64,000 nt of DNA. Source: Parcubacteria group bacterium (lineage in GTDB: Bacteria > Patescibacteriota > Patescibacteriia > Patescibacteriales > GWC2-42-12). The first letter of the stretch is position 1. Each line of letters opens with the position of its first letter. The notes below the pieces were generated by a model. The model was not told the DNA's origin and searched no databases. It saw nothing but the letters and a program-made list of their open reading frames with translations. The position numbers and the translations under genes were made by a program. The DNA is taken from assembly GCA_016188785.1 (NCBI GenBank), contig JACPHD010000001.1, forward strand, positions 26,300 to 90,299, written 5' to 3'. Shown here piece after piece: positions 12,215-48,258 of the stretch.

Positions 12215-12450
12215 TGTCATTGCGGGCTCCCGCCCGTTTCGCAAGCGAAGCGTTGCGGGCGGGTGACCCGCAATCCCCGCCCGCCTTGACTTCGCGGTTT
12301 AAAATTAAGATGAATATAATATTTTATACTAAATATTTAATCTTAATAAATAGGCTATACGGTCAAGGCGAAGTCGGGCGCGGCAGAAACTTGTTCTAAG
12401 CGAAAAAATCTGGATTCCGGCTCGCCTTCGGCTTAAAGGCCGGAATGACA
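12215..12450. mobile_element. MITE-like GC-rich element with TGTCATTGCGGG...CCGGAATGACA termini (family copy 1)
   Basis: Shares the GTCATT/AATGAC termini and internal GC palindromes with copies at 41779-41994, 45329-45473 and 48144-48258. Confidence 0.55.
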
Positions 12451-12459
12451 AGAAAAAAA

Positions 12460-13467
12460 TTACTTCGTCGCAAAGATGCTCCTTTTATACGAATCCAAGT
12501 TTTCTAAGGCAATGCCCGTGCCTTTGGCCACGCAAAGCAAAGCATCATCCGCTACGTAAGCCGGCACGTCGGTCGTGCGCGACAGCAATTGGTCAATATT
12601 TCGCAGTAGCGAACTGCCGCCGGATAGCACCATGCCTTTGTCCATTATATCGGCAGCTAATTCCGGCGGCGTTTCCTGAAGCACTCTTTTAGCCGCGCTG
12701 ATTATGGCTTCCAGCTCATTCTGAATCGCTTCGGTCACGTCATCGGAATTAACCATAATATTTCTAGGCAGGCCGGTTATCATGTCGCGGCCGCGGATTT
12801 CCATAGTCAGTTTGTCTTCAAGGTATAAAGCGCTGCCGATTTTAATTTTTATTTCCTCAGCCGTTCTTTCGCCGATGGCTAAATTATATTTGCGCCTGAT
12901 AAATTCCTGGATGGCCGCGTCAAATTTATTGCCGCCGATTCTAACCGAAGTTGAAGTCACCACGCCGCCCAAAGAAATTACCGCCATTTCGGCCGTGCCG
13001 CCGCCGATATCAATAATCATATGCCCGGAAGCCGAGCCGATGGGAATATCGGCGCCGATGGCCGCGGCAATCGGCTCTTTAATAATATAAGCCGCTCTGG
13101 CTCCGGCCGCGATGGTCGCGTCTATGACCGCGCGCCGTTCGGTTGAAGTAATGCCGGCCGGCACCGCCACCATAACTTCCGGCCGGAATAATCTAATGCC
13201 ACCCAAAGCTTTATTGATAAAGTATCTTAACATGGCTTCAGTCGTGTGATAATCGGCGATCACGCCGTCTTTTAGCGGCTTGATGGCGATGATCGTGTCC
13301 GGCGTCCGGCCCAGCATGTCTTTAGCTTCATTGCCCACGGCTAAAATCTTTTTGTCAATTAAAGAAACCGCCACCACGCTGGGTTCGTTAATAATAATGC
13401 CTCTTTTCGGCAAATGCACTAAAATATAAGTTGTGCCCAGATCTATGCCTAGACGTTTGATGAACAT
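12460..13467 (-). CDS. mreB: Rod-shape determining actin homologue MreB
   Basis: 'GIDLGTTYILV', 'DIGGGTAE', 'LSGGSSLL' actin-fold motifs. Start taken at MFIKRLG. Confidence 0.9.
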   Translation of the reverse strand: MFIKRLGIDLGTTYILVHLPKRGIIINEPSVVAVSLIDKKILAVGNEAKDMLGRTPDTIIAIKPLKDGVIADYHTTEAMLRYFINKALGGIRLFRPEVMVAVPAGITSTERRAVIDATIAAGARAAYIIKEPIAAAIGADIPIGSASGHMIIDIGGGTAEMAVISLGGVVTSTSVRIGGNKFDAAIQEFIRRKYNLAIGERTAEEIKIKIGSALYLEDKLTMEIRGRDMITGLPRNIMVNSDDVTEAIQNELEAIISAAKRVLQETPPELAADIMDKGMVLSGGSSLLRNIDQLLSRTTDVPAYVADDALLCVAKGTGIALENLDSYKRSIFATK

Positions 13468-13479
13468 AAGATAAAATAA

Positions 13480-13619
13480 AATTTTCAAATCACAATTTTC
13501 AATTTTCAATGAATTTTCAATGTTATAATTTTCAAATGTATTAATGCGTTACTTTAATTGTTTGTAAATTGGTTTATTGGAATTTCATTGAAAATTGGGA
13601 TTTGAAAATTGAAAATTTT
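13480..13619. repeat. Octamer repeats ATTTTCAA x5 then TTGAAAAT x3 (inverted blocks) upstream of mreB
   Basis: Read directly. The same octamer recurs at 15624-15660, 47378-47408 and 58446-58615. Confidence 0.7.
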
Positions 13620-15623
13620 TTAGAACCTTATCTCAAAGCTCCTGTCTATATTCAAATCCCCTTCCCACTTAATCCTAACCGGACCCAGTTTCTGCGTTGA
13701 CAGATTAGCCGGGCTATATGATTTTATAACATTTGCAAAGCTTAAGTCAACCGTAAGATTAGCTAGCTCTTTACCCGGCTGTTTCTGGATATAAAGATTG
13801 TAGTTATTATTTAATCTAAGGCCCGGCGGCAGCTTGTACTCAACCGTAATATTATTGATTTTTCCCGGCTCCACGGTTAAATAAAAACCAAACCAGGTTT
13901 TACCAGCCTCGCTACCAGTAGCTATGTCTTCAGGCTTATAGCCGCTAATTTTAATCAATTGACTGCCTAATGGCGCGTAGACTCTGGTATAACTTTTATA
14001 AGCGCTAGTTTTCCAGTCAAGCCGGCCGTTATGCGCGTAGTTAAGAGTTAATTTAGCGGACAGGCCGCGGCCAGCTTGCTCGGTTATTTTATAATTTAAG
14101 CTCCGGCTCATAACCGCGTCGGTTTTTAAAGCCGCTAAATTAGCGTCCACCACCATAAGATAATCGCCGTAATAATTTTTTATTTCTCCGGCCCAGCCGT
14201 TTTGCGCCGCCAGGCTTTCTAATTGGCTGTCGGCCAAATAAAGCAATAAATTTTTTTCAGTTAAGTTATTGATGGCGGTATTTATAATCTCCGACCATTG
14301 GCGCGCCGGCAAATCAAAAATTTTAATTTTTAATTGTTTGAATATTTCGCCGATAACTTCTTTTCTCTGCCAGGCCGAAACACCCAAAACCAGGTAGCCT
14401 TTTTCCACCCGATATTGCAGTAAATCTTGAAAATTATTTTGATCATAAGCTTGCCCTTCAATCGTTACCGGACCGGTTATTTTTAAAAAATCAGTAACTA
14501 ATTTCGGCGTGACGGCCAACAGGCCGCTAAATTCAGGAATTTTTTCCGCTGCCGGATTTAAAAAACTTTCGGTTTGATAGAATTTATTTATCGTCCTGGC
14601 CGCGGTTGGCCAGTCAGGCGACCAGTTAGCGTCGCGCAAATACCATTTGTCGTTTAAATATTTTTTAATCGGCTCCGGCGGCGCGATATTTATTTTTTTC
14701 TGCACCGGCATATCCAGATGATAAATATCATGTGTAGTAAAACTTAAGATATCGCCGTCTTTAATCCGTGAAATTCCATAAGTGCCTAAAAATCCTCCGG
14801 TTGGCCTTAACTCGTCGTTATTCTGCAACATCACTAAATAATTAGCTTGACTAGGGTAGCCGGCTAAGGCCGGAATTAGCTGCGACAACGGGACGGCTTT
14901 ATCTAAAATAAGGCCGGCTTGATTAATTTGTGTTTTAACCTGATTGATTTTATCTTTTAAGGCGAAAAAAATACCCGAGCCGTCAGCCCGCTCTAAATTG
15001 ATAGAGGCCAGGGCCAAATCAGCTTTTATGCCGTTTAATTCCGGCGCTGATTCAAATATTTTTTTAAGGATAAGGCGCTTGGTTTCAGGACTTAACCGGG
15101 AAAAACTGGTTTTTCTGTCTCCGGCCGAAAGGGCCGCCAGGCTTTGGCCGAAATTAGCGCCGCCGTGAACCGCCTTGCTTAAGAACAGCGCGCCGGTAAG
15201 CAGATTTTCTGCCTGGTTAAGCTGTCTTGAAATTATGGGCAAATTACTTATCAAATTACTTATTAAGAACTCTATTTTTATTTGCTCAATCGTGTCAAGG
15301 GAAACCGTAAAATTATTTTCCGCCTGCCTGGCCATGGTCGCGGCTAAAGTAAAATTATCATGTTGGACAAACTCCAGGGCCTGCTCCAGATTGCTTTTGC
15401 CTAGAGCGGCCTGATCATAAATTTGTTTTAAACTAAAAATTTTAGATGATAATAAAATCAAGAGCAGCAAAAATAAAAAAACTATCGCCAAACCGAAATA
15501 TTTTAAAATTTTATAAGACAAACGCAAGCGCCGGCGCCTTTTAACCGCCGGAAGACGGCCGATCAGGTTGTCGGCTTGCTCATACCAGGCTTTGAAATTT
15601 ATATGTTTTGAAAATTTAATCAT
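13620..15623 (-). CDS. Membrane-anchored DUF4012-like protein
   Basis: N-terminal basic stretch plus TM, then a large periplasmic domain. Family assignment from memory only. Confidence 0.4.
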   Translation of the reverse strand: MIKFSKHINFKAWYEQADNLIGRLPAVKRRRRLRLSYKILKYFGLAIVFLFLLLLILLSSKIFSLKQIYDQAALGKSNLEQALEFVQHDNFTLAATMARQAENNFTVSLDTIEQIKIEFLISNLISNLPIISRQLNQAENLLTGALFLSKAVHGGANFGQSLAALSAGDRKTSFSRLSPETKRLILKKIFESAPELNGIKADLALASINLERADGSGIFFALKDKINQVKTQINQAGLILDKAVPLSQLIPALAGYPSQANYLVMLQNNDELRPTGGFLGTYGISRIKDGDILSFTTHDIYHLDMPVQKKINIAPPEPIKKYLNDKWYLRDANWSPDWPTAARTINKFYQTESFLNPAAEKIPEFSGLLAVTPKLVTDFLKITGPVTIEGQAYDQNNFQDLLQYRVEKGYLVLGVSAWQRKEVIGEIFKQLKIKIFDLPARQWSEIINTAINNLTEKNLLLYLADSQLESLAAQNGWAGEIKNYYGDYLMVVDANLAALKTDAVMSRSLNYKITEQAGRGLSAKLTLNYAHNGRLDWKTSAYKSYTRVYAPLGSQLIKISGYKPEDIATGSEAGKTWFGFYLTVEPGKINNITVEYKLPPGLRLNNNYNLYIQKQPGKELANLTVDLSFANVIKSYSPANLSTQKLGPVRIKWEGDLNIDRSFEIRF

Positions 15624-15662
15624 TGTTTGAAAATTGAAAATTTGTAAATTGAAAATTAAACC

Positions 15663-16919
15663 TCATTCTTGCCTTAAGGCTTCAATCGGGTCAAGCCGCG
15701 CGGCTTGGCGCGCCGGATAAAGGCCGAAGCCTAAGCCGAAAATTACGGCAAAAGCCAAAGAAATGTAATAAGCGCGCCAGGGAACAAAAAATTTCCAGCT
15801 TAAGCCATTGTAATTGGCCGCGTAAGCGATTAAGTAAGCCGCGCTCAGGCCGATTAAAACGCCGAGCGCGGCGCCAATCAAGGTTATTATCAACGATTCA
15901 ACCAAAAATTGCAACATGATATCCTTAAATCTCGCGCCCACGGCCTTGCGCAAACCGATTTCGCTAGTCCTCTCGGTAACTATAACATACATTATGTTCA
16001 TTACGCCCACGCCGCCCACGATCAGCGAGATTGCCACGATGGCTAAAAGCAATAAAGTTATGGCCCCGGTTATGGTGGAAACCGTTTTCATGGCTTGGGC
16101 CATCGTGGTCACGCGAAAATCATCTTTAGCCGGATCAGCGATATTATGATTTTGTCGCAAGGCTATTTTTACGTCATCCGCGGTTAAATCAGCCAAGCTT
16201 ATATCGTTTAACTGGCTCATGATAAAATTAGCCTTATCCAGTCCCATTAATTTTTTTTGCAGTGTGCGCAAAGGCAAATAAATAAAATCATCAAAATCAA
16301 CGCCCGTGACCTGGCCTTTTTCTGCCATCGCGCCGATGATCAGAAATTTTTTTTGGCCGATTTTAAGGCTGGCACCGATTGGTTCGGAATCGCCGAACAG
16401 CTTATTCTTCATCCTATAGCCCAAAACAGCGACTTGAGTCAGGGATTTTTCTTCCGCGTCAGAATAAAAACGTCCGGACGCGACTTTGGTTTTATCAATC
16501 TCAATAAAATTAGCGCTAACGCCGTATAAAAAAGCTTTTCTAAACTCACTGCCATAGCTTACCGGCTGCTGGCTTAAAATGCCGGCGTAACTTTTCTTGA
16601 TGTTAGGCAGTTTGTCAATATCAGCCAGGTCTTTAAAAGTTAAATTAGCCGCCTGAATGCCTTGGACCGCGGCAATCGCGCTTTGAACGTCGCCGGCCGC
16701 GCCTTTTTTAGCGCTCGGAATTCTTGATTCAACATGAAGAGTATCCGTGCCAAAACTTTGAATTTGCCCTAAAATCAAAGCGCGCACGCCTTCGCCGGCG
16801 GCAAAAACAATTATCACCGCGCTAATGCCGATAATAATACCCAAAACCGTTAGCGCGGTTCTTAATTTATTGGCCATAATTGACCGCAGAGAAATTTTTA
16901 TAACTGATAAAATACTCAT
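15663..16919 (-). CDS. ABC transporter permease, MacB/FtsX family
   Basis: N-terminal TM, large periplasmic domain, C-terminal FtsX 3-TM with 'ERTSEIGLRKAVGA'. Confidence 0.85.
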   Translation of the reverse strand: MSILSVIKISLRSIMANKLRTALTVLGIIIGISAVIIVFAAGEGVRALILGQIQSFGTDTLHVESRIPSAKKGAAGDVQSAIAAVQGIQAANLTFKDLADIDKLPNIKKSYAGILSQQPVSYGSEFRKAFLYGVSANFIEIDKTKVASGRFYSDAEEKSLTQVAVLGYRMKNKLFGDSEPIGASLKIGQKKFLIIGAMAEKGQVTGVDFDDFIYLPLRTLQKKLMGLDKANFIMSQLNDISLADLTADDVKIALRQNHNIADPAKDDFRVTTMAQAMKTVSTITGAITLLLLAIVAISLIVGGVGVMNIMYVIVTERTSEIGLRKAVGARFKDIMLQFLVESLIITLIGAALGVLIGLSAAYLIAYAANYNGLSWKFFVPWRAYYISLAFAVIFGLGFGLYPARQAARLDPIEALRQE

Positions 16920-18173: not shown

Positions 18174-18332
18174 AAATACGAATTACAAATCCTATACGAA
18201 TTTACAAATTATTAAAGTAAAATATTTAATATCATCAACAGTATTAGAATTATATTTATTCGTAAATTTGTAACAGATTTGTAATTTGTATCCCTTTTAT
18301 TCGTAAATTCGTAACAAAATTCGTAATTCGTA
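18174..18332. repeat. Dispersed 8-9-mer repeats ATTCGTAAATT / TTGTAATTT in the intergenic region
   Basis: 'attcgtaaattcgtaacaaaattcgtaattcgtattac' and similar. Confidence 0.6.
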
Positions 18333-31556: not shown

Positions 31557-31590
31557 AAATTATTGTGTTAATTTGCTAGTATTTTATGAA

Positions 31591-31760
31591 TTAGCTCGAA
31601 CTGAATTCAAAAAAAGGTTTTAAACCAGCTTTTAAAAGCAAGAAATTCATTCACGGGCAAAGCCCGACTTTAGGCGACCGCGCCCGCCTTGACGCCGCAA
31701 GGCAGTCGGGCGGGTTTCAAGTTTTGGCGGCAAATTTTTTTAACACTAGGGCTTTTCAGT
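31591..31760 (+). repeat. ~170-bp repeat family, copy A
   Basis: 'GAATTAGCTCGAAC(T/C)GAATT(C/T)AAAAAAAGGTTTTAAAC...' is shared with 34360-34580 and, inverted, 39745-39972. Confidence 0.7.
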
Positions 31761-32315: not shown

Positions 32316-33660
32316 CGGCGCGTGTCAATGGTTTGCACTCGTCCATGTCATACTTAACACCAGGGAGTGCAAAATATGTTAAACCATAGTAATATCTGTA
32401 GATTTGGCCATTTAAGCCAAACTAAAGCTACAGATATTATGCAAACACAAGCTGAAATAAAATTAAACCCTTTGCGGTGTTATCTTTCGCCGGAGGCGAA
32501 AAAAAGATTAAAATGGATGTATCTTGTAAAATACGAATGTGCCAATAATATTTCGCAGGCGGCCAACCGCCTCGGCATTTCTCGCGTCTGGCTGTCTCAA
32601 ATTCACAGCCGCTGGCAGAAACATCGCGAAGACCCCAGGAGTCTGGAGCCGGAGTCAAAAGCGCCGCATGACACGAGCAACCGTAAACGGATTGATGAAA
32701 AAGTTGAAAATAAAATTGTTGAAATCAGAAAAAAATACCAGCCCTGGGGCAAAGACAAATTATCGGTCATTTTAAAAAGGGATTATCAATTAATGGCCGG
32801 AGCCTCCACCGTCAATCGCTATCTCGTAAAACATAACCTGATTGATCCGAAACTATCCGAGAAAAATAAACTGGCCTGGCAGAGAAAAAAAGAAAAGGCA
32901 AATCTGAAATTTAAAATGAGGCCGCCGGCGGTAATCAAAGATTACAAACCCGGGGCGCTCTTAGAAAAAGACATGAAATTAGTCCTGAAAATGGGTATAT
33001 TCACTAACATGAATAAGCATCGCGCTAAAGAAAACTTCTGGTATCAGCATACCTTAATTGATTCTTTTACCCGCGTCAGAGCCGTTGGTTTAGCCGAGGA
33101 TTCTAACAGCCAAACAGCGGTAGCGGTTCAGGAGCAGGCGGTAAGCCGCCTGCCCTTCGCCATCGCGGCGATAAACAACGACAACGGCGGTGAGAATGAA
33201 AAAGATTTCTCTGTTTATCTGGAAAAAGAAAAAGTGGCTCAATTTTTTTCCCGCGCCGGCACGCCGACAGATAACCCGCGTGTTGAACGCTCTCATCTAA
33301 CGGACGAACTGGAATTTTACGCCCAAGGCAATCTGCATAAAAATTTTAACGATCAGGCTAAGGCAATATCAGAATGGGAACACACTTACAATTTCGTCCG
33401 GCCGCATCAGGCTCTCGGCTATCTAACACCCATGGAATTTTACAGGCTCTGGCAGAAAAACCCCGAAGAGGCCCATCGGATTAAAAATAAATACAGCGCT
33501 TATCTTAAAAAACAAAGTCGTCGTTTGGCTAAATCCAGACAAATGAAAAACAAGGAACAAATTGAAAATCTAATGAAATTTATTGATAAAAAATTGTCAA
33601 AATCTAATTCTTAAAAGTGTTAATTATGTTCGTGGACTTGAACATGTTATCAATGTTAAA
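32316..33660 (+). mobile_element. IS481-like insertion sequence (approximate ends, imperfect TIRs)
   Basis: Left end 'TGTCAATGG...CATACTTAACAC' versus right end 'GTGTTAATTATG...CATTGATAACA' gives partial inverted identity. Higher GC than the flanks. Confidence 0.45.
32367..33614 (+). CDS. DDE transposase (rve integrase core, IS481-like) with N-terminal HTH
   Basis: 'ISQAANRLGISRVWL' HTH. rve core '...NDNGGENEKDF...', 'RPHQALGYLTPMEFY'. Confidence 0.8.
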   Translation: MQNMLNHSNICRFGHLSQTKATDIMQTQAEIKLNPLRCYLSPEAKKRLKWMYLVKYECANNISQAANRLGISRVWLSQIHSRWQKHREDPRSLEPESKAPHDTSNRKRIDEKVENKIVEIRKKYQPWGKDKLSVILKRDYQLMAGASTVNRYLVKHNLIDPKLSEKNKLAWQRKKEKANLKFKMRPPAVIKDYKPGALLEKDMKLVLKMGIFTNMNKHRAKENFWYQHTLIDSFTRVRAVGLAEDSNSQTAVAVQEQAVSRLPFAIAAINNDNGGENEKDFSVYLEKEKVAQFFSRAGTPTDNPRVERSHLTDELEFYAQGNLHKNFNDQAKAISEWEHTYNFVRPHQALGYLTPMEFYRLWQKNPEEAHRIKNKYSAYLKKQSRRLAKSRQMKNKEQIENLMKFIDKKLSKSNS

Positions 33661-33716: not shown

Positions 33717-34286
33717 TTATTTTATCCTGAAAATTTCCTTGATTTTATTAACATTTTCTTTGGCCGCGAAAAAAGCTTCAATAAAAGCTGATTTAGGTAT
33801 CATTCTGCCTTCTAAGGCTTCTCTCTTTTTCGTAAAATCCCAGGCAATTATTGGATCCTGGTATATATAGAATATCACAACCGGCCGCGAATGGTCTAAC
33901 GATCTTTTAACATTTTTATAAGAAACATCATACTTGGAAAACGTCCCATCAACTATCGCCTCTAATTTCTTGGCGAGAATATGGTCATACAGCTTTTCAA
34001 CTCCAATTGAAGAAGCACCTTGGACAACATCAGAATTCTTACCATTATATTGAGGCATAATTTCTTTGATTTCATCGGCGTCGATCCTAACTAATTTCTT
34101 ATCCAATATTTTGGCTAAATTTTTAGAGAATTCGGTCTTGCCCGCCCCCGGCGAACCGGCCATAAAAATAGTAACTGGATTTACAATCGATTTATAAAAA
34201 TCAGGCTTAGCAAATTTTTCAATTAACAACTTTCTATTTTTCTTTATAAATTTTTTTGCTTCTTCCGCTTCTTTAATATTTATCAT
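33717..34286 (-). CDS. Zeta-toxin/AAA_33-like P-loop kinase
   Basis: Walker A 'MAGSPGAGKT'. 189 aa. Confidence 0.55.
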   Translation of the reverse strand: MINIKEAEEAKKFIKKNRKLLIEKFAKPDFYKSIVNPVTIFMAGSPGAGKTEFSKNLAKILDKKLVRIDADEIKEIMPQYNGKNSDVVQGASSIGVEKLYDHILAKKLEAIVDGTFSKYDVSYKNVKRSLDHSRPVVIFYIYQDPIIAWDFTKKREALEGRMIPKSAFIEAFFAAKENVNKIKEIFRIK

Positions 34287-34359
34287 GCTTTTATTATATC
34301 ATAAAATAATAAAAATATTAAAGAAACCAAAATATCACTTTATATTGGGAGCTTTGCTC

Positions 34360-34580
34360 AAGTTGGCTGGCATTTTACGAATTAGCTCGAACCGAATTTA
34401 AAAAAAGGTTTTAAACTATCTTTTAAAAGCGCCTCTGCCGGCAGGCAGGCGCCCCCGCTTTTAAAAGCAAACATTTTCCCGCGGGCAAAGCCCGATTTCA
34501 GGCGATTTCAAGTTTTTCTGCAGGCGAAAGCCCTCTCCGCCCCGCTTCTGCTGGGCGATTTGGCGGCAAATTATTTTTTG
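34360..34580 (+). repeat. ~200-bp repeat family, copy B (left flank of the R-M module)
   Basis: Begins 'AAGTTGGCTGGCATT' (like the tRNA-Gln 3' end). Core is near-identical to the inverted copy C. Confidence 0.75.
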
Positions 34581-36219: not shown

Positions 36220-38712
36220 ATGCCTACTCTAACGAAGAGACAAAAGCAAATTTTAGACTTCATTCGTGAGTATATTAATAAACATAATATATCCCCTACC
36301 TTTGAAGAAATTAAAAAACATTTTAGATTATCTGCGCTATCTACCGTACATCAGCATATTGAAGCATTAATCAAAAAGGAATTTTTAGTAAAAAATAATA
36401 ACTTATCAAGAGGACTCGAGTTAAAAACAAAAGGGGAAGACATAGTTGAAATTCCTTTACTCGGCGTGATTGCTGCTGGTCAACCGATCGAAGTCTTTGA
36501 AGAACACGAGACTATAACCGTTCCGCGCACCAATTTATCTAACGCCGGTGAACATTTCGCATTGAAAGTACAAGGCAATTCCATGATTGATGAAGGAATT
36601 TTTAATGGCGATACTGTAATTATCAGAAAACAAAATACGGCCAGCAACGGAGAAACTATAGTGGCTATAATAAATGGCAATGAAGCGACATTAAAAAAGA
36701 TATATAGATTTCAAAATGGTTTTAGGTTACAACCGGCGAACCCAGAAATGAAACCGATCTTTGTAAAAAGTTTGCTTGTCCAAGGTAAAGTTGTAAGTGT
36801 TATAAGAAACTTTGAAAACAATACTATCATTGAACAAATTTCTAGCAATGAAGAATATATTGTTTCCAAAGAATATTCGGAAAAAGGTATAAATTTAGAT
36901 CAGCTCATAAGTGAGCTGGTAAATTTTAGAGATATTATAATATTTAAATACGGCTTTAATACAGCAGATGATTTTTTAAAAACACAAATTATTGACGGCT
37001 TAATTCTACAAGAAATTTTTAAGCACATCGCAAATAAAAAAAATGTAAATACTAACATCCAAGCAATAAACGAAATACTGAAAGAACTAAACCTAAATCA
37101 TGTAGAATTTACAAAGGATGATATAAAAATTTTTGGGGATATTTTAAAAAAATACAATTTTAGTAGCTGCGATGATGATGTGCTTGGTTTTATATATCAA
37201 AGCATTAGGCCCCAGAGTGGCAGAAAAGATGATGGCCAATATTACACCCCCAAAAAAGTAGTTAAATATATTTTAAATAATGTAAAAATAAATTTAAAAG
37301 AAAACAAAAATTTAAAAATTTTAGACCCAGCCTGTGGATCCGGACAATTTTTGCTGGAAACATACGATATTTTGTATAACCAATACAAAACAATGGGTGA
37401 AAAAAACGAAGCGGACATCCATTACAAAATCATTAATAATCACTTACTTGGCTTTGATATAGATAAAATCGCCGTGAGTTTGGCTAAACTTAATTTATTT
37501 CTAAAATCAAAAGGTACGTATACAGAAAAATTTAATATTTTAATAACAAATACGCTTAAGCGAGATTCTAACTTACTAGAACCAAATCAATTGGACAAAT
37601 ACAAAGGCAGTATTGATTTTGTAGTGGGCAACCCTCCCTGGGGAGCAAATTTAAATGAAGAACAAAAAAAATATTATAAAAAGCATTATGATATAGGAAA
37701 AAATGGATTAAACACATTTACTCTTTTTATTGAACGTGCTTTTGATTTTCTTAAAAAAAATGGAAAATTAGGATACTTAATACCTGAGGCCTATCTAAAA
37801 ATTAAAGTGCACCAACTTTCTCGCCTGCAAATATTAAATAGAGCCAAGATACTACTCCTTGGAATTAGCGGGGATATATTTCAAAAAGTTTACGCTCCTT
37901 GTTTAGTAATAATTTTCCAACAAGAAAAAGATAAAACAGCCAGGGAAAAAAATGAAATAAATATAGAAAATGGAGTTTTCAACGGACATGAAGAACATAA
38001 GACGATAATTCAAAAAAATTTTGAAAAATCCGCTGAAAATATTTTTAACATCAACCAAGTCGGCGAAACTGAAGAAATACTAAACCATATCCTTGAACAA
38101 AAAAATTATTATCTTAAAGATAACGCATTATTTATATTAGGTATCGTAACCGGTAACAATAAAAAGTATCTAATCCGAGAAAAGAAAGACAATAAATATT
38201 CCCCTATTATAGTGGGCAAAGATATAAGCAAATATAAAATCAACTTCAGCGGCAATTATTTTATCTATGACAAAAACATACTCCAGCAAATTGCTCCGAA
38301 AGAATATTATACCGTACCTGAAAAAATTATTTACAAGTTTATTGGAGAAAAAATCACATTTGCTTATGACGATAAACAATATTTTACTTTAAACAATGCT
38401 AATGCATTCGTGCCTAAAATAGAAAAAATAAAAACCAAATATATTTTGGCCTTATTAAATTCAAAATTGATGCAATTTTTTTACAATAAATCTTTTTTTA
38501 CCGTAAGAGTACTCCGTGGCAATTTAGAAAAATTGCCTTTAGTTTACGCGGATCAAAAAAAACAAGAACAAATTATCAGCCTAGTTAATCAAGCAATAAA
38601 TTCAGAAGAAGATAGAATACTAAAAATAATTTTAGACAAAATTGACGACGAGGTATTCTCTCTTTATAAAATATCAAAAAAGTGGCAACAATATATTTGT
38701 AAAGAGACATAA
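36220..38712 (+). CDS. Fusion protein: complete LexA (HTH plus S24 peptidase) fused to a gamma-class N6-adenine DNA methyltransferase with a C-terminal TRD
   Basis: aa 1-200 are LexA-like ('VIAAGQPIE', 'QGNSM', 'ATLKK'), a close paralogue of the lexA at 24946. Then 'LDPACGSGQFLL' (motif I), 'GNPPWG' (motif IV) and ~300 aa TRD. No stop or frameshift between the parts. Confidence 0.8.
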   Translation: MPTLTKRQKQILDFIREYINKHNISPTFEEIKKHFRLSALSTVHQHIEALIKKEFLVKNNNLSRGLELKTKGEDIVEIPLLGVIAAGQPIEVFEEHETITVPRTNLSNAGEHFALKVQGNSMIDEGIFNGDTVIIRKQNTASNGETIVAIINGNEATLKKIYRFQNGFRLQPANPEMKPIFVKSLLVQGKVVSVIRNFENNTIIEQISSNEEYIVSKEYSEKGINLDQLISELVNFRDIIIFKYGFNTADDFLKTQIIDGLILQEIFKHIANKKNVNTNIQAINEILKELNLNHVEFTKDDIKIFGDILKKYNFSSCDDDVLGFIYQSIRPQSGRKDDGQYYTPKKVVKYILNNVKINLKENKNLKILDPACGSGQFLLETYDILYNQYKTMGEKNEADIHYKIINNHLLGFDIDKIAVSLAKLNLFLKSKGTYTEKFNILITNTLKRDSNLLEPNQLDKYKGSIDFVVGNPPWGANLNEEQKKYYKKHYDIGKNGLNTFTLFIERAFDFLKKNGKLGYLIPEAYLKIKVHQLSRLQILNRAKILLLGISGDIFQKVYAPCLVIIFQQEKDKTAREKNEINIENGVFNGHEEHKTIIQKNFEKSAENIFNINQVGETEEILNHILEQKNYYLKDNALFILGIVTGNNKKYLIREKKDNKYSPIIVGKDISKYKINFSGNYFIYDKNILQQIAPKEYYTVPEKIIYKFIGEKITFAYDDKQYFTLNNANAFVPKIEKIKTKYILALLNSKLMQFFYNKSFFTVRVLRGNLEKLPLVYADQKKQEQIISLVNQAINSEEDRILKIILDKIDDEVFSLYKISKKWQQYICKET

Positions 38713-39744: not shown

Positions 39745-39972
39745 GCCGATATTTTTTACAGGCTCGGCGCCTGTCCCGTTGCATAACGGGAGCAGTTTTT
39801 TAAAGCCGGGCTTTGCCCGCGGGGAAATTTTTACCCCGTTGAATAACTGGGGATTACTTTTAAAAGCGGGGGCGCCTGCCTGCCGGCAGAGGCAGAGGCG
39901 CTTTTAAAAGATAGTTTAAAACCTTTTTTTAAATTCGGTTCGGATTAAATCATACATTGCCAGCCAATTTGG
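39745..39972 (-). repeat. ~200-bp repeat family, copy C (inverted; right flank of the R-M module)
   Basis: The reverse complement matches copy B. Terminal 'CCAGCCAATTTGG' is an inverted copy of the tRNA-Gln 3'-end region 'CCAAATTGGCTGC'. Confidence 0.75.
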
Positions 39973-39988
39973 AATAAGCCTAAAATTT

Positions 39989-40017
39989 AAAGCCAAACCC
40001 CATTCGGGTTTGGCTTT
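39989..40017 (-). terminator. Rho-independent terminator downstream of tRNA-Gln
   Basis: Minus-strand read: AAAGCCAAACCCGAATGGGGTTTGGCTTT followed by a T-run. Confidence 0.6.
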
Positions 40018-40039: not shown

Positions 40040-40113
40040 TGGCTGCGGGACCTGGATTCGAACCAAGATAACATCCTCCAGAGGGATGTGTCCTACCATT
40101 AGACGATCCCGCA
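40040..40113 (-). tRNA. tRNA-Gln (anticodon CUG)
   Basis: Minus-strand sequence TGCGGGATCGTCTAATGGTAGGACACATCCCTCTGGAGGATGTTATCTTGGTTCGAATCCAGGTCCCGCAGCCA. U1-A72, T-loop TTCGAAT, anticodon loop CTCTGGA. 3' half nearly identical to the E. coli tRNA-Gln 3' half. Confidence 0.75.
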
Positions 40114-40116: not shown

Positions 40117-41715
40117 TTACCCCACCACCTTTCCGCCAAACGTCTTTAACAGATTGTCAATCATATTACCCGGCTCGCCTTGCGCCGGGGCCGCCGAGGC
40201 CTCTTTTTTCGCGGCTAACGGCTCATCTGAAACTAATTTATTAGCCGCCACTTCTAAATTTTCATCAATCACCGCTTCAATCATAATCGGCGCGCCATAA
40301 ACCTGATGCAAAACTTTTTCTATGACATTTTTTATGGCGGCTTCGCTTACCCGGTCTTTATGAAATTTATATTTAAAAGCTAAACAAAGCTGATTGCCGC
40401 TTAAATCTCGCGGCTGGCAGACGCGCAAAATAAATGATAAAGAATGATTATACTGCTTGACCTTGGCTAAAACTTCGTTCCATTTTTCCTGGATTTGGCT
40501 ATTAGTAAAATTTACCGGCTGGCCGGCTTCGGCTGATTGCTTAACTTCTATTTTAGCCGCGGCCGGCTGACTTTTAGGCAAACTGAATTTTGAGCCGGCG
40601 GAAAAACCCGGGACCGCGGCTTGAGCCGTGCAAATTTCGGCGATGGCCATTTCTAAAACTAACTGCTGGATAAAATCAGCTTTTAATTCAGCCGAAACCC
40701 TAATGAATTTTTCTAAAAATTTAAGCGCCTGTTCAACATTTAAATCCGCGGCCAGCTTATTTATCTTTAGTTCAAAGGTTTCGCCCAGCTCCAGGGATAA
40801 TTTATTTACCAGGCCAGGGCTTATTTTCATGAGCATAAGCTTTCTTAAAATTTCAATCGTGTCTTTAACAAAGGTTTTAAGATCAACGCCGTCGTCCATT
40901 AGTTTATTGACTAGCCTGATGCCGCCAGCCGCGTCTTTTTTTATTAAAAATTCCAGCAAATTTATAACTTCATTTAAATCCGAGCGCGGGATGACTAAGT
41001 CAGCTTCGGCTTGCGTTATGTCCGCGCCGCCGATAGCGATAATTTGACCGAGCAGGCTTTCCGCGTCCCGCATATGGCCGTCGGCCTGGCGGGCGATCGC
41101 TTCTAAAATACTTTTATCAACCTTTATTTTTTCCGCCTGAACTATATAAGTTAATTTTTTAACCGCGTCGTTAACCCCGATTCTTTTAAAATCAAAGCGC
41201 TGACAGCGGGAAATTATCGTAGCCGGCACTTTATGCGCTTCAGTCGTGCATAAAATAAACACCACGTTGGCCGGCGGCTCTTCAATCACTTTTAAGAGCG
41301 CGTTAAAAGCCTGAGCCGAGAGCATGTGCGCTTCGTCAATGATAAAAACTTTATATTTTGAGCGCGACGGCGCCACGTGCGCGCTGGCGATTATGTTATC
41401 CCTTACATTATCCACGCCAGTGTTGGAAGCCGCGTCAATTTCAATAATGTCCAAAGCCCGGCCCTGGGCAATTTCCCGGCAGCTTAAGCATTTATCGCAA
41501 GGATCGGCCGTATCACTTTTGCGCTCCAGACAGTTGATTGATTTAGCCAAAACTCTGGCTAAAGTGGTTTTGCCTACGGCCCGCGGCCCGCAAAACAGAT
41601 AAGCATGAGCCATTTTATCGGTCTTAATTTCCTGTTCCAGAGTTATTTTTATGTGATTTTGCCCGACCACTTCGCTAAAATTCTGGGGCCGGTACTTGCG
41701 GTATAAGGTTGACAT
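40117..41715 (-). CDS. dnaX: DNA polymerase III subunit gamma/tau
   Basis: 'YRPQNFSEVVGQ', Walker A 'GPRAVGKTT', zinc module 'CDKCLSCREI', 'FIIDEAHML'. Confidence 0.9.
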   Translation of the reverse strand: MSTLYRKYRPQNFSEVVGQNHIKITLEQEIKTDKMAHAYLFCGPRAVGKTTLARVLAKSINCLERKSDTADPCDKCLSCREIAQGRALDIIEIDAASNTGVDNVRDNIIASAHVAPSRSKYKVFIIDEAHMLSAQAFNALLKVIEEPPANVVFILCTTEAHKVPATIISRCQRFDFKRIGVNDAVKKLTYIVQAEKIKVDKSILEAIARQADGHMRDAESLLGQIIAIGGADITQAEADLVIPRSDLNEVINLLEFLIKKDAAGGIRLVNKLMDDGVDLKTFVKDTIEILRKLMLMKISPGLVNKLSLELGETFELKINKLAADLNVEQALKFLEKFIRVSAELKADFIQQLVLEMAIAEICTAQAAVPGFSAGSKFSLPKSQPAAAKIEVKQSAEAGQPVNFTNSQIQEKWNEVLAKVKQYNHSLSFILRVCQPRDLSGNQLCLAFKYKFHKDRVSEAAIKNVIEKVLHQVYGAPIMIEAVIDENLEVAANKLVSDEPLAAKKEASAAPAQGEPGNMIDNLLKTFGGKVVG

Positions 41716-41778: not shown

Positions 41779-41994
41779 TTTCATTGCGAGGAGCGTCTTC
41801 TTTTGTCATTCCGGCCTTGAGCCGGAATCCCCGCCCGCCTCGCCTTGCGGCTCGCATGGCGGGCGCGGCAGATTAAGCCCGTAGTTAGTTTGGTTTACTC
41901 TGATGATTATAAATTCAGAGGTTCGTGGCGCTTAAACCTGGATTGCGGGTCAAGCCCGCAATGACAATTAAAAAATTATTGCTCGCAATGACAA
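41779..41994. mobile_element. MITE-like element TTTCATTGCGAGG...GCTCGCAATGACAA (family copy 2)
   Basis: Nested palindromes GTCATTCCGGCC/GGCCGGAATCC and GGATTGCGGGTCAAGCCCGCAATGAC. Confidence 0.6.
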
Positions 41995-42001: not shown

Positions 42002-42646
42002 TTACTCCGCCTTTCGCACAATATTCTCTACCGCCGCCCACTTTGATTCGCCGTTTTTAGGCACTAAAACGACCACTTCGTCGCCGCTTTCGCCTTTATA
42101 ATAAGTTACGCTAGCGGTTAAAAGTCGCCATCTTTTGCTATCGGCCAGAGCAAAATATTCGCCGCCTAAAGAACGCTCTAAAATGCCGACCAGACGCGCC
42201 CGTTCAATCGGACCGATCTGCTTATAAACGAAAGTACCGGTAGCGGTGATGGTAAGCTTTAAAATATCACCTTCAACTAATTTTGATTTTGAAGCATAAT
42301 TGGCCGGCACGCTGTACTGCTTGCCGTCCGGGCCGATCATATTTTCGCCGTCAAACACGCCTTCAATAATGCGGGCTTGATCAGAATTTTCTTCGCCTGA
42401 CTGAAAATTTTCCTCGCTTAACTGGGCAATGCTGATAGCCGCCTCGTCTTCGGCTGATAAATTGTCGGCTAAAAGCTGAATTAAACGTTCATTATTTTCT
42501 TTGATGTTAGCTAATAATTTTTTTGCTAAAACCATTTTTGATTTAGCAATAATAATATTATCTTCTTTTTCAACCGGCCGCTTAAGCGGCTCGACGTCAA
42601 TTTCTAAAGTTAAATCATCGTTTAAATTTTTGTTTTGATCTGGCAT
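42002..42646 (-). CDS. Hypothetical protein
   Basis: 214-aa ORF downstream of the VirD4-like gene; no motifs recognised. Confidence 0.4.
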   Translation of the reverse strand: MPDQNKNLNDDLTLEIDVEPLKRPVEKEDNIIIAKSKMVLAKKLLANIKENNERLIQLLADNLSAEDEAAISIAQLSEENFQSGEENSDQARIIEGVFDGENMIGPDGKQYSVPANYASKSKLVEGDILKLTITATGTFVYKQIGPIERARLVGILERSLGGEYFALADSKRWRLLTASVTYYKGESGDEVVVLVPKNGESKWAAVENIVRKAE

Positions 42647-42708
42647 AAATTTTGTTTTATTAGTTATTTAATTTGTCATAATCTTATCTAAAAAATTATA
42701 ATTTGTAA

Positions 42709-42763: not shown

Positions 42764-42773
42764 AAAGACAGGC

Positions 42774-45320: not shown

Positions 45321-45328
45321 AAAAACAC

Positions 45329-45473
45329 TTGTCATTGCGAGGAACGTTATTTTAATTTGTCATTGCGGGCTTGACCCGCAATCCAGGACGATGGAAATAT
45401 TGACCAACGTGGTTTTTCTGGATTCCTGCCTGCGCAGGAATGACGAAAGAAATTTGCTCGCTCGCAATGACAA
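45329..45473. mobile_element. MITE-like element TTGTCATTGCGAGG...CTCGCAATGACAA (family copy 3)
   Basis: Inner hairpins GTCATTGCGGGCTTGACCCGCAATCC and GGATTCCTGCCTGCGCAGGAATGAC. Confidence 0.6.
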
Positions 45474-45581
45474 TAAAAAAACATTACCCTTTTAACTTAA
45501 TCAATTCGTCCGCCTTGAGCTTGGCTTCTTGCTCTAAAAAATATTTATTTATACCCGGAATTAAAGACAGCCATTTTTTTA

Positions 45582-45992
45582 TCAATTTAATAATTTCTTA
45601 ATAATTTCACCGATATTTATTTTAGCCTTAGTTAAAAGCCGGCTGATTTTTTTCGCGGTTTCTTCGCCGGCTCGCTTAAATTCCTGCTGTTTTTGCGGCG
45701 CCAAATTCAAATATATATCTCTTAAATCTTGGGCTAAGATATTTTCCACCTGCTTTTGCCGCTTGGCCGGCGGCGCAGTCACGCCCCCGACCGGACCAAT
45801 CGCGGCCGGCGCCATGGTTTCGGTTTGGCTGATTTTTTCAGTCGCGCCAATTTTATCTTGCTCCAGGCTTTTCGCCTGCTCGCCATTAGCCAAGCGCTCC
45901 GGGTTTTGTTTTAATTTCTCGCCTTGAACTAACGGCCGCTCATTGGCCGCCGCGGCCTTTTCATTTGGCTGATCCAATTTTATGTCAGGCAT
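45582..45992 (-). CDS. Hypothetical low-complexity protein
   Basis: 136-aa ORF. Confidence 0.3.
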   Translation of the reverse strand: MPDIKLDQPNEKAAAANERPLVQGEKLKQNPERLANGEQAKSLEQDKIGATEKISQTETMAPAAIGPVGGVTAPPAKRQKQVENILAQDLRDIYLNLAPQKQQEFKRAGEETAKKISRLLTKAKINIGEIIKKLLN

Positions 45993-46098
45993 ATAACATT
46001 ATTATAACATAAAATAAAATAAATAAAAATACACTCTATTTTTATAAAATAAAATATATGCTATAATAAAAACAATTAAATCTCTTACTCCCATTTCT

Positions 46099-47067
46099 AT
46101 GTCTAACTCCAAAAAAATTTCTAAAAATATTCAGCAAATTGCCATCGCCAATCCGCAAAAAACTAATTACATTAACTGGGTTAATATCAATAGCGCGGGC
46201 AAAGCGGAAATTGAATTTTTAAGAAAAACCTACGGCTTTAAATTATCGCAATTAGCGGCCTCGGCGGCCAAAGCCAGCTCCCAAAGGCCGATTATTGCCC
46301 GCGAAGCCGATTATATTTTTATAATTTTACATTTTCCGGTTGAAACTAACGGCCGGATTATGGCCGCGGAAATTGAATTTTTTATCGGCCATGGCTTTTT
46401 AATAAGCCTGCCTGGCGCGGCGGTTAAACCGCTTAATGATTTTTTTAACTTATGCAAAAAAGATTCTAATTCGCTCTTATCTTATAAACTTGAATCTTCA
46501 GCCATCCTGCTTTATGAAATTTTAAACCAACTGCTTAAACATAGCTACGCGCTGTTAGATAATAACAGCCTGGCTATCAGCCAGGCCGAACAAACCGTCT
46601 TAAAGAGCCAAGACCAAAAAAAATCAGCCGCCTTAATTTTAAGCCTGCGCCATAATCTGATTAACACTCGTAAAATCATGCAGAATCATAAAAATATCAT
46701 TAAGCGGCTGATGGTCATGGAAAGCAGTCTGATCGCGCCGGAGCAGCTTAAAAAATATTATAGCCAGCTCGTGGATCAGACAAAAAATATTTGGGAAACT
46801 TTAGAAAACCAGCGCGACATGGTTGAAGCGCTGTCCGCCTCTTACGAGTCGCTCTCTAATTATCGCTTAAGCGCTATCATGAAAACTTTAACTATTTTTT
46901 ACGTGATCTTTTCTTCTCTGTCTTTAGTGGCGGCGATTTTTAGCCTGAACGTAGATAAAAATATGCCATTTATAAATCAGCCCAACGGTTTTTGGCTGGT
47001 GATTATTATTATGAGCCTAGTCGGCTTAAGCATGCTCTATTTATTTAAAAAGAAAAAGTGGCTGTAA
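46099..47067 (+). CDS. CorA-like divalent cation transporter (GMN motif not conserved)
   Basis: 322 aa; two C-terminal TM helices after a long cytoplasmic domain. 'LNV' sits in place of GMN. Confidence 0.5.
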   Translation: MSNSKKISKNIQQIAIANPQKTNYINWVNINSAGKAEIEFLRKTYGFKLSQLAASAAKASSQRPIIAREADYIFIILHFPVETNGRIMAAEIEFFIGHGFLISLPGAAVKPLNDFFNLCKKDSNSLLSYKLESSAILLYEILNQLLKHSYALLDNNSLAISQAEQTVLKSQDQKKSAALILSLRHNLINTRKIMQNHKNIIKRLMVMESSLIAPEQLKKYYSQLVDQTKNIWETLENQRDMVEALSASYESLSNYRLSAIMKTLTIFYVIFSSLSLVAAIFSLNVDKNMPFINQPNGFWLVIIIMSLVGLSMLYLFKKKKWL

Positions 47068-47145
47068 AAATATAAAATTACAAATAACAAATTACAAACA
47101 AATACTAATGACCAAAATTAAAATTATAATCCGTTTAAAATTAGG

Positions 47146-48117
47146 TCATTTGAATTTATAATTTGTTTGTAATTTGGTGTTTGTAATTTGGGATTTAATA
47201 ATGTTTTTTACATCCGATAAACTCTCTACTTGAATTAACTTTTTCCTTAATTCAGACGCATTATCCAGTCCCCTGACGTACCAGCATAAATGCTTACGCA
47301 TTTCTATTATTCCCTGCTTGCCTTTTAATTTATGAGCCAAACTCGTATGCTTTAAAGCTGTTTCAAAAATTTCTTTATTTGAAAATTGAAAATTGAAAAT
47401 TGAAAATTGTTTGAATATCCACGGCCGCCCCAGCGCGCCTCGGCCGATGCCAAGACCATCGGCTTCAGTCTTTTTCAACATCTCTTCGGCGCTGGCTTCA
47501 TCCTTAACTCCGCCATTGGCTAAAATAATACCGGAAAAATATTTTCTAGCTTGCTTAATTATTGTAAAATCCACTTCGCCCGAATGGCCTTGAGCTAAAC
47601 TGCGGCCATGAATCATAACCGCGGCCACTGGCAAATCTTTTATAGTTTTTAAAAAATCCAAAACCGTTATTGCCCCGACCCGCGAGCGGCATTTTATAGA
47701 CACTGGCAGATTAGTCGCGCCTAAAACCGCTTTAACAATTTCACGAGCTAATTTTAAATCATTCATTAAAACCGCGCCCGCGCCCTGCCGCGCTACTTTT
47801 TTTACCGGACAGCCGAAATTTATATCCAGGCCGTCCGGTTTTATTTTTTTAGTAATAAATTCAGCCGCGTAAGCGAAATGCTCCGGCTTACTGCCGAAAA
47901 GCTGGGCCACAAACGGCCGCTCTGCCTTACGATCAAACCGCGCCAACTCTAAAGTTTTTTTTGAATTATAAACAATAGCCGTAGCGCTAATCATTTCGCT
48001 GAAAACCGCGTCCGCGCCGAACGACTGGCAAATTTGCCTGAAAGCCGAATCGCTTATTCCGGCCATGGGCGCTAAAGCATAGATCGGTTTTTTAAAAGTT
48101 ATCCAAAAATTTCTCAT
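47146..48117 (-). CDS. dusB: tRNA-dihydrouridine synthase
   Basis: 'LAPMAGISDSAFRQ', 'DINFGCPVKKV'. In-frame (GAAAATT)4 encodes FSIFNFQFS. Start taken at MRNFWITF. Confidence 0.85.
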   Translation of the reverse strand: MRNFWITFKKPIYALAPMAGISDSAFRQICQSFGADAVFSEMISATAIVYNSKKTLELARFDRKAERPFVAQLFGSKPEHFAYAAEFITKKIKPDGLDINFGCPVKKVARQGAGAVLMNDLKLAREIVKAVLGATNLPVSIKCRSRVGAITVLDFLKTIKDLPVAAVMIHGRSLAQGHSGEVDFTIIKQARKYFSGIILANGGVKDEASAEEMLKKTEADGLGIGRGALGRPWIFKQFSIFNFQFSNKEIFETALKHTSLAHKLKGKQGIIEMRKHLCWYVRGLDNASELRKKLIQVESLSDVKNIIKSQITNTKLQTNYKFK

Positions 48118-48143
48118 AAAAACATCAGACCGCCAAAAAAATA

Positions 48144-48258
48144 CCGTCATTCCTGCGGAGGCAGGAATCCAGAAATTCCACGAACATTTTTTCTCCCCGC
48201 ATATGCGGGGCGGATTCAGGGGAATGACGATACTTTTCGGACAGTCTTGAAATGACAA
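48144..48258. mobile_element. MITE-like GC-rich element CGTCATTCCTGCGGAGGCAGGAATCC...GAAATGACAA (family copy 4)
   Basis: Includes palindrome CCCCGCATATGCGGGG. Lies between the cysS stop and the dusB start. Confidence 0.55.

Follow-up and report, generated by a model that had tools for sequence, protein, structure and literature searches.

Probable CGTC-tagged REP doublets at polymorphic intergenic sites of a Parcubacteria group genome and their association with Ssn-like GIY-YIG nuclease genes in relatives

Results

Four intergenic clusters built from a tagged hairpin unit

The stretch of DNA analyzed here (the window) comprises 64,000 nucleotides (64 kb) of a Parcubacteria group bacterium (assembly GCA_016188785.1, contig JACPHD010000001.1, positions 26,300 to 90,299), a member of the Patescibacteria in the candidate phyla radiation (CPR). 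It contains four short repeat clusters (copies 1 to 4), each located between two co-directional genes of the minus strand, i.e., GT4 and MreB, DnaX and a 214-aa open reading frame (ORF), a VirD4-like gene and an ORF, and Dus and CysS, respectively. An initial annotation had described these clusters as a family resembling miniature inverted-repeat transposable elements (MITEs), with terminal inverted repeats (TIRs) of the form GTCATTGCGAGG/CTCGCAATGAC at every copy. The four stretches, their intergenic location and the shared internal hairpin units were confirmed in the sequence, the latter comprising GTCATTGCGGGCTTGACCCGCAATCC in copies 2 and 3 and GTCATTCC(G/T)GC...GC(C/A)GGAAT in copies 1 to 4. 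As detailed below, the clusters are probably doublets of CGTC-tagged repetitive extragenic palindromes (REPs) of the NTS/SRM class, whose partner would be a GIY-YIG single-stranded DNA (ssDNA) nuclease of the Ssn type rather than a DDE transposase.

The motif GTCATTSC occurs 11 times on the two strands of the window, compared with 2.18 occurrences expected from dinucleotide shuffles, and none of 100 shuffles reached 11. All 11 sites are confined to 12215-12450, 41779-41994, 45329-45473 and 48144-48258, which together represent ~710 bp of the 64 kb. Within the window, neither a scan for GTCATT outside long ORFs nor a detector of tagged hairpins revealed a further convincing copy. Copy 3 shares 38-nt blocks of 92-95% identity with copy 2 as well as with copy 4. 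When folded as ssDNA and compared with shuffled sequence, copies 1, 2, 3 and 4 had z-scores of -5.1, -6.3, -7.2 and -3.9, respectively.

The basic unit spans ~28 nt on one strand and consists of a (C/T)GTC tag, an 8-bp stem starting with ATT, a loop of 4-6 nt, an arm ending in AAT and a CC(A) tail; some units have a long loop with a nested GC hairpin instead of the short one. We delineated eight units (U1 to U8) in the window. The tag is found in all eight (CGTC in U6, U7 and U8; TGTC in U1-U5), and seven have an 8-bp stem that starts with AT and takes the form ATT(G/C)CNGN, U8 being degenerate. The stems are ATTGCGGG, ATTCCGGC or ATTCCTGC. The loop is GCAG, GGAG or CTTGA (4-5 nt) in five of the eight units (U3-U7), and it measures 40 nt in U1 and 17 nt in U2. 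Five units end in a CCA tail and two in CCC. In all four clusters the units form inverted pairs with the tags outside (U1/U2, U3/U4, U5/U6 and U7/U8), so that one unit in the correct orientation is found on each DNA strand. Copies 2 and 3 additionally have truncated GTCATTGCGAG arms (TTGTCATTGCGAG(G/C) half-units) as an outer pair around this inner doublet, 27-28 nt upstream of the inner tags. A GC hairpin module, CCGCCCGCC...GGCGGGCGCGGCAGA, is common to copies 1 and 2, and the basic tagged hairpin is also found singly and in other combinations.

Copy 1 (12215..12451), between the GT4 glycosyltransferase gene (10933-12204) and MreB, is a head-to-head doublet with the tags outside. Its plus-strand unit, U1 (12215..12278), has a TGTC tag, an 8-bp stem (ATTGCGGG/CCCGCAAT), a CCC tail and a loop within which a GC hairpin is nested (12229-12263); elsewhere, Ssn-like genes are also flanked by units of this long-loop type with a hairpin inside. 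A GC-rich hairpin with an AT-rich interior of 60 nt follows on the plus strand (CCGCCCGCC...GGGCGCGGCAGA; 12277..12387), the same module as the one after U3 in copy 2. The minus-strand unit, U2 (12410..12451), has a TGTC tag, the stem ATTCCGGC/GCCGGAAT and a CCA tail.

Copy 2 (41779..41994), located between DnaX (40117-41715) and the 214-aa ORF (42002-42646), is a nested doublet. Along the plus strand, it includes an outer 5' half-unit, TTTCATTGCGAGG, in which the tag is mutated from GTC to TTC (41779..41791), U3 (TGTCATTCCGGC-CTTGA-GCCGGAATCCCC; 41804..41832) and the GC-rich module shared with copy 1 (41831..41872). Its minus-strand components are U4 (TTGTCATTGCGGG-CTTGA-CCCGCAATCCAGG; 41937..41967) and the other outer 5' half-unit, TTGTCATTGCGAGC (41976..41994), which lies 27 nt upstream of the U4 tag. 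Copy 3 (45329..45473) has the same nested plan and ends 8 nt upstream of the true start of the VirD4-like gene (ATG 45320). On the plus strand it carries an outer 5' half-unit, TTGTCATTGCGAGG (45329..45345), 28 nt upstream of the tag of U5 (45357..45387), which is identical to U4; on the minus strand it carries U6 (CGTCATTCCTGCGCAGGCAGGAATCCAG; 45418..45445) and a second TTGTCATTGCGAGC half-unit (45456..45473).

Copy 4 (48144..48259) extends between the CysS stop codon (48259-48261) and the probable Dus start (ATG 48117). Its plus-strand unit, U7 (CGTCATTCCTGCGGAGGCAGGAATCCAG; 48145..48172), aligns with the unit downstream of a GIY-YIG gene carried by relatives. The GC hairpin CCCCGCATATGCGGGG (48195..48210) comes next, and a near-identical hairpin is located inside a GTCATTGCGAGG unit of one relative, the L246 locus. 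On the minus strand are the degenerate unit U8 (CGTCATTCCCCTGAATCC; 48212..48229) and, directly after the CysS stop, the terminal tag ATTGTCATTTCAAG (48246..48259), which matches the left end of the relatives' GIY-YIG cassette, TTGTCATTTCGA, in L246, L250 and L255. The only other public contig with an identical CysS protein (L001; Logan SRR12113431, 2308 bp) ends inside copy 4, just before the CCCCGCATATGCGGGG hairpin, consistent with a repeat that breaks short-read assembly.

The proposed TIRs were thus not common to the four copies, since the GTCATTGCGAGG/CTCGCAATGAC termini are present in copies 2 and 3 only. Copy 1 ends with a GTCATTGCGGG unit and a CCGGAATGAC unit, and copy 4 ends with CGTCATTCCTGC and GAAATGACAAT; all four share only the GTCATT...AATGAC tag. 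What had been taken for TIRs are additional 5' half-units of the hairpin repeat itself. The ATG inside one terminus (ATGACAAGTG), which had been taken as the start codon of the VirD4-like gene, likewise lost this role, the real start lying five codons downstream. Close VirD4-like homologs are 845-847 aa long and begin with MDYG (61 of 120 start in this way), and in the relative L244 the ATG of the tag is out of frame with the gene. Mechanical ORF calls therefore run into the repeats at two places, and both start codons are corrected here: the VirD4-like gene starts at ATG 45320 (MDYG), not at 45335, and Dus probably starts at ATG 48117 (323 aa; orthologs of 306-351 aa), not at TTG 48258.

Probable membership in the CGTC-tagged REP class

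CGTC-tagged REPs have been defined by a CGTC or TGTC tag, stems of 8-9 bp starting with AT (A-T and T-A as the first pairs), loops of 4-5 nt and an unpaired tail of 3 nt, mostly CCA (Di Nocera 2013, PMC3733652). According to the same study, they occur mostly as head-to-head dimers with the tags outside and with spacers of 20-100 bp, between unidirectional or convergent ORFs, in tens to thousands of copies per genome, and no dedicated transposase is known for them. Four families (CGTC-1 to -4) were described, including the RPE-6/RPE-4 repeats of Rickettsia and repeats of Wolbachia; CGTC-1 comprises dRS3 of Neisseria and RPE-6 of Rickettsia. The hosts in that survey were Proteobacteria, Chlorobi, Bacteroidetes, Spirochaetes and Thermotogae, and CPR bacteria were not among them. 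The window units agree with this definition in the tag, the AT-starting 8-bp stem, the 4- to 5-nt loop, the CCA tail and the arrangement as head-to-head dimers between unidirectional genes. They differ from it in the 17- and 40-nt loops of two units, the outer truncated arms of copies 2 and 3 and the CPR host.

SsnA of Neisseria, a single-domain GIY-YIG nuclease of 94 aa, binds the 28-nt NTS (CGTCATTCCCGCGMAVGCGGGAATCYRG) and cuts it, acting on ssDNA and on one strand only (Chenal 2025, PMC11893778). Mutagenesis in that study revealed that cleavage depends critically on the three bases upstream of the palindrome, and binding on the C after it. The ssn genes are typically flanked by such motifs, and nicking by Ssn upstream of the tag lowers, in Neisseria, the integration of motif-bearing transforming DNA. 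Compared with the NTS consensus, U6 has two differences, at positions 10 and 19, which together make up one compensated base pair, and U7 has three. The window repeats resemble the Neisseria NTS/dRS3 elements (including the NIME mosaics) and SsnA system in having the same unit plan and nearly the same sequence, in forming intergenic mosaic clusters, in conserving GTC upstream and C downstream of the palindrome, and in the SRM-ssn-SRM layout found in relatives of the window. Unlike in Neisseria, GCGGG or CCGGC stems and a CTTGA loop predominate among the units, none of which fits the SRM search pattern; in addition, the host is a member of the Patescibacteria, no ssn gene is present in the window, and nuclease activity or a role in transformation here would be by analogy.

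We aligned 13 units from the window, from CPR relatives and from other phyla. GTC and the C after AAT are invariant in this alignment, which includes every well-formed window unit, as are the tag and the tail as a whole. All stem cells (100%) pair, and four of the eight pairs show double compensatory changes, in a set that we chose ourselves and in which some of the units from outside came from a pattern favoring such stems, while the units from the window and its relatives were not selected for pairing. The covariation score was 0.50, compared with 0.12 for shuffles (none of 500 reached 0.50), and slid controls collapsed. Covariation across the aligned units thus supports the hairpin.

The repeats are not unique to the window, as matching units were found in other genomes. 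The exact 26-mer core of U4/U5 is present in at least 120 stretches of unrelated genomes; among the matches listed, the hosts include Ramlibacter, Polaromonas, Caenimonas, termite-gut Bacteroidales, Oscillospiraceae, Defluviitaleaceae, Endomicrobium, Deferribacteraceae and others, i.e., Betaproteobacteria, Bacteroidales, Clostridia-class Firmicutes and Endomicrobia among other groups. A degenerate hairpin pattern yielded at least 120 matches in viral contigs (G+C of 45-72%), and the dominant form among the matches listed was GTCATTCCCGCG(A/C)AGGCGGGAATCC. A literature search with the literal termini returned only unrelated primer matches. Patescibacteria are unmentioned in Di Nocera 2013, Chenal 2025 and the RepRanger survey, and a targeted full-text search found nothing relevant.

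An Ssn-like GIY-YIG gene between tagged units in relatives

The best matches of the VirD4-like protein of the window (85-89% identity) are named Candidatus Falkowbacteria or Patescibacteria group. In one of these relatives (L246), a GIY-YIG gene of 88 aa (L246:5903-6169; PF01541, E = 1.4e-15, residues 7-80) is located between CysS and Dus, which is the position of copy 4. Its closest homologs (97 aa, 81-92% identity) occupy the same place between CysS and Dus in L250/L251 and L255/L256. The homologs of this protein (P0121) are single-domain proteins of 97-99 aa, within the size of about 94-100 aa expected of the Ssn family, in which the GIY- and YIG-like motifs are invariant, and NCBIfam has no specific family for it. 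In L246, L250/L251 and L255/L256, the gene is flanked by GTCAT-tagged units. The cassette consists, in order, of a doublet (TTGTCATTTCGA...GAGAAATC, a spacer and GGGATTTCTC...TCGAAATGACA), the gene and a further unit (GGGATTCCTC...CGGAATGACA). Copy 4 lacks the gene and has two parts in common with this cassette: the ATTGTCATTTC end, placed 2-4 nt beyond the CysS stop, and, in front of Dus, the GGATTCCT...GGAATGAC unit. Copy 4 probably represents a remnant or derivative of the relatives' GIY-YIG cassette from which the gene is missing.

The same gene family is found in other CPR contexts, with the same kind of doublet before the gene. The junction between mraY and murD in the cell-wall gene cluster is usually tightly conserved. 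In one contig (L257, positions 2712-3304; Logan SRR29243437), a CPR Ssn-like GIY-YIG gene and its upstream tagged doublet are inserted between these two genes.

The association extends beyond the CPR. Among viral-contig loci chosen solely for protein similarity, a tagged hairpin lies within 250 bp of every full-length Ssn-like gene (12 of 12), compared with 1 of 29 more distant GIY-YIG genes. In seven of the 12, such hairpins are found on both sides. Of the nine Ssn-like ORFs in the loci fetched by the exact 26-mer of the window, eight have flanking tagged units, in most cases the unit of that 26-mer itself. The exact unit of the window also flanks betaproteobacterial GIY-YIG proteins with which the CPR GIY-YIG protein shares 48% identity (E = 1e-32). 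In a betaproteobacterial metagenome-assembled genome (L166; CAIVLG010000241.1), an Ssn-like gene has on either side a complete unit that is preceded by a tandem array of up to eight 19- to 20-nt 5' half-units (TGTCATTGCGGGTTGTCG; 6297-6556 and 7017-7169), the half-unit duplication of the window's outer arms taken to an extreme. These arrays are possibly a footprint of nuclease-triggered repair.

Gain, loss and inversion of doublets at orthologous sites

We compared the window with seven syntenic loci from relatives (L242, L243, L244, L246, L247, L248 and L249), which cover ~33-55 kb of the window. Three orthologous intergenic sites, CysS|Dus, orf|VirD4 and orf|DnaX, are highly variable among these genomes, the VirD4-like proteins of which are 84-89% identical. 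The site upstream of the VirD4-like gene is empty in L247 (an 18-nt spacer) and L243 and holds an 81-nt two-unit doublet in L244. In L246 and L248, the L244 doublet is present as its reverse complement (87-88% identity versus 65% in the same orientation). L249 carries another GTCAT-tagged palindrome at this site, L242 a heptad-repeat palindrome, and the window a related doublet within outer half-units. Upstream of DnaX, L246 has a complete GTCATTGCGAG-type doublet and the window has GTCATTGCGAG-type termini with an inner doublet in between; heptad-repeat palindromes are found in L242, L243, L244, L248 and L249, and the site is empty in L247.

At the filled VirD4 sites, the left and right flanks total 16-21 nt, compared with 18 nt at the empty site of L247, indicating that insertion makes little or no target duplication. 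The target-site duplications (TSDs) expected of MITEs, a check suggested in the initial annotation, did not appear: there is no consistent direct repeat at the four copies or at the filled sites of the relatives. The search revealed a weak TGTTTTT repeat at copy 3 only, in a T-rich context, and nothing at the other copies. The doublets have thus been gained, lost and inverted at fixed intergenic sites without TSDs.

The heptad-repeat palindromes represent a second intergenic repeat family, with arms of tandem 7-mers, (TTTTCAA)n ... (TTGAAAA)n, and TTTGTAA and TTTGGGA variants. In the window, members are located at 13466-13631, 58451-58586, 47068-47196, 18176-18291, 47375-47408 and 5190-5234, and one lies directly upstream of MreB. 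In the relatives they sit at the sites (upstream of the VirD4-like gene and DnaX) that hold GTCATT elements in the window and L246. A function as promoter or regulator sites is conceivable, as is a second kind of mobile palindrome.

Discussion

A proposed nuclease-associated repeat and its alternatives

These observations make it likely that the four elements are CGTC-tagged REP doublets of the NTS/SRM class with a GIY-YIG nuclease as their partner. In such a system, a unit would fold into its hairpin when the DNA becomes single-stranded during replication, repair or DNA uptake. A small single-domain nuclease of the Ssn type may then bind the hairpin and the following C and nick the strand a few nucleotides upstream of the GTC tag. 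The gene for this nuclease would itself be embedded between such units, at the CysS|Dus site in close relatives. The corresponding site of the window keeps the flanking units only (copy 4), suggesting that the nuclease is encoded elsewhere in the genome or was lost recently. The action of the nuclease on ssDNA may underlie the spread and rearrangement of the doublets, which would be non-autonomous, TSD-less intergenic elements prone to gain, loss and inversion. They would be analogous to REPINs and their RAYT (REP-associated tyrosine transposase), with another nuclease family in its place. Binding and cleavage by the nuclease in this organism, the manner in which the doublets spread and any effect on recombination or gene expression would follow from the resemblance to the Neisseria system, and the elements may incidentally affect the operons that transcribe them.

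Several points weigh against this interpretation. No Ssn-like or GIY-YIG gene was detected in the 64-kb window by regular expressions, by Pfam on small ORFs or by a local HMM search with the filters off. The published SRM pattern, HGTCWYN(0-2)YYVSBRHN(0-5)WNVSBRGN(0-2)RNCYNB, has no match in the window, whereas canonical NTS controls do match it, and both U6 (two mismatches) and U7 (three) exceed the single mismatch allowed in the published NTS search; units outside the pattern would be variants that current searches miss. The CPR GIY-YIG gene is flanked by ATTTCGA- and ATTCCTC-type units, not by the ATTGCGGG/ATTCCGGC units that dominate copies 1-3, its L246 copy is truncated (88 aa), and the best relatives of its product among solved structures (PDB) are UPF0213 proteins (E = 1e-7). 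Furthermore, transposition by Ssn has never been demonstrated, and a mobile (domesticated) SRM-ssn-SRM layout is only a hypothesis in Chenal 2025 (PMC11893778).

The proposal that the copies are classical MITEs, i.e., deletion derivatives of an insertion sequence (IS) with a DDE transposase, mobilized in trans through 12- to 13-bp TIRs and generating TSDs on insertion, would explain the 13-nt inverted termini (TTGTCATTGCGAG/CTCGCAATGACAA) and the length (145-216 bp) of copies 2 and 3, the presence/absence polymorphism in relatives and the weak TGTTTTT repeat that flanks copy 3. We nevertheless consider it very unlikely. Copies 1 and 4 lack those termini, and the GTCATT tag is internal, on every unit. 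The termini are half-copies of the hairpin unit, a pattern also seen beside full units in other phyla, where 46 upstream same-strand half-copies were counted compared with 6 in the downstream control. No consistent TSD is evident, as the flank lengths at the VirD4 site illustrate, and the sole transposase of the window, an rve_3 DDE integrase (32367-33614), has unrelated ends, with none in the loci of the relatives. This gene was considered as the parent IS and rejected, since it has no such termini. What remains of the MITE description is a short, gene-less, palindromic, intergenic, multicopy and site-polymorphic family; the classical TIRs and TSDs do not. The family is comparable to bacterial MITEs (e.g., Correia elements) and IS200/IS605 ssDNA transposons in being small, non-autonomous, palindromic and polymorphic in presence, and copy 4 relates to the gene-carrying cassette as a MITE does to its parent IS. 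It differs from them in the lack of a TSD and a DDE transposase, in termini that are not element-specific and in the lack of an HUH transposase like that of IS200/IS605. Mobilization by a RAYT of the HUH Y1 type, as in Pseudomonas and Escherichia coli, is in our view extremely unlikely despite hairpin doublets with the tags outside, intergenic and without TSDs, that resemble REPINs and BIMEs. The tag is CGTC/TGTC and not GTAG, and Pfam scans of 53 ORFs of the window (all those of at least 150 aa and most shorter ones not nested in longer ones) revealed no Y1 transposase, nor is one annotated in the loci of the relatives. In addition, no RAYT flanked by CGTC units was found in the earlier survey (Di Nocera 2013, PMC3733652). 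The gammaproteobacterial REP/BIME and REPIN doublets with RAYT (TnpA-REP) and the system considered here have in common the tagged hairpins, a small ssDNA-acting nuclease gene between repeats, doublets as the unit of spread, the absence of TSDs and intergenic clustering. They differ in the tag and in the nuclease (HUH Y1 versus GIY-YIG). For RAYT, cleavage has been observed in vitro and populations provide evidence of movement; the window element is not a member of that family.

Two further accounts were considered. All four elements lie between co-directional genes and are probably transcribed, their predicted structure is strong, and copy 3 ends 8 nt from the start of the VirD4-like gene, which an element abuts at a similar distance in three relatives. 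They may therefore act at the RNA level, as attenuators, mRNA-stabilizing hairpins or translational occluders in minus-strand operons, with the nuclease association being incidental, and many REPs have been argued to be RNA elements (Di Nocera 2013, PMC3733652). As a full explanation this appears improbable: no site resembling an intrinsic terminator is present at any element, no T-run follows the stems, and Rfam has no family for any element, either at gathering thresholds or at E <= 1. Moreover, close relatives have either nothing or a different filling at these sites, so that no conserved regulatory role is required, and the invariant single-stranded tag and tail fit determinants of protein recognition, not the needs of folding. 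A role at the RNA level is compatible with the nuclease interpretation; the two are not exclusive. It is exceedingly improbable that the units are attachment or target sites of a recombinase and not themselves mobile, in the manner of dRS3, the documented target (dRS3/NTS) of an IS110-type phage recombinase in Neisseria. The sites do behave as hotspots whose content differs between relatives (a GGDEF gene, small ORFs and heptad palindromes), but no IS110-type or phage integrase gene adjoins any of the four elements, and most of this content consists of other small palindromes instead of integrated elements with split units at their ends.

The CGTC-tagged doublets with a GIY-YIG partner thus remain our preferred interpretation. 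A further step, which we put forward as possible and rather doubtful, is that the doublets and the embedded GIY-YIG gene constitute a genuine mobile element that has spread across phyla, in which a GIY-YIG single-strand nuclease replaces the transposase.

Other features of the window

A repeat of ~130 nt is present in three copies (31570-31686, plus strand; 34338-34470, plus strand; 39854-39992, minus strand) that are 81-98% identical in parts. These repeats bracket the rve_3 DDE integrase (32367-33614), a zeta toxin (33717-34286) and a LexA-fused N6-methylase/TaqI_C protein (36220-38712), and the bracketed block ends beside a tRNA-Gln gene (40040-40113). The block looks like a mobile island or a set of paralogous leader sequences. 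The ORF upstream of the VirD4-like gene (~45484-45992, minus strand) is frameshifted relative to its orthologs of 164-169 aa; the switch of frame occurs at an A-run near 45585, and the stop of the orthologs corresponds to ~45484-45486. Either a sequencing error or a pseudogene would account for this. The window also has a load of restriction-modification and SOS-type genes that is dense for a small genome (97-3869, 21894-24858, 24946-25626 and 36220-38712). These include a Z1 domain protein, an MvaI/BcnI endonuclease, N4/N6 and N6 methylases, a type I S subunit with an internal 501-nt repeat and two LexA-like proteins, one of which is the methylase-fused protein.

Implications for Patescibacteria and for the repeat family

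Selfish repeats are thought to be rare in Patescibacteria, which are ultra-small bacteria with reduced genomes. Both the repeat class and its nuclease were already known; what is new is the phylum and the sequence variants, and CGTC-tagged/Ssn-type repeats together with an Ssn-like gene are now placed in Patescibacteria. The units described here are missed by the published SRM pattern, suggesting that current surveys undercount the family. The synteny bears on the question, raised with the discovery of Ssn, of whether SRM-ssn-SRM is a mobile element, since it provides a site that varies among relatives between empty, filled and inverted states, and an apparent gene-less remnant at the position of the nuclease gene.

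If the mobile-element reading is true, insertion would occur without target duplication and in either orientation, and gene-less doublets and half-unit footprints would be left behind. The identical 26-mers in CPR, Betaproteobacteria, Bacteroidales, Clostridia-class Firmicutes and Endomicrobia would then reflect spread across phyla, and the Falkowbacteria-like relatives would offer natural examples of one and the same site in an empty, filled, inverted or gene-less state.

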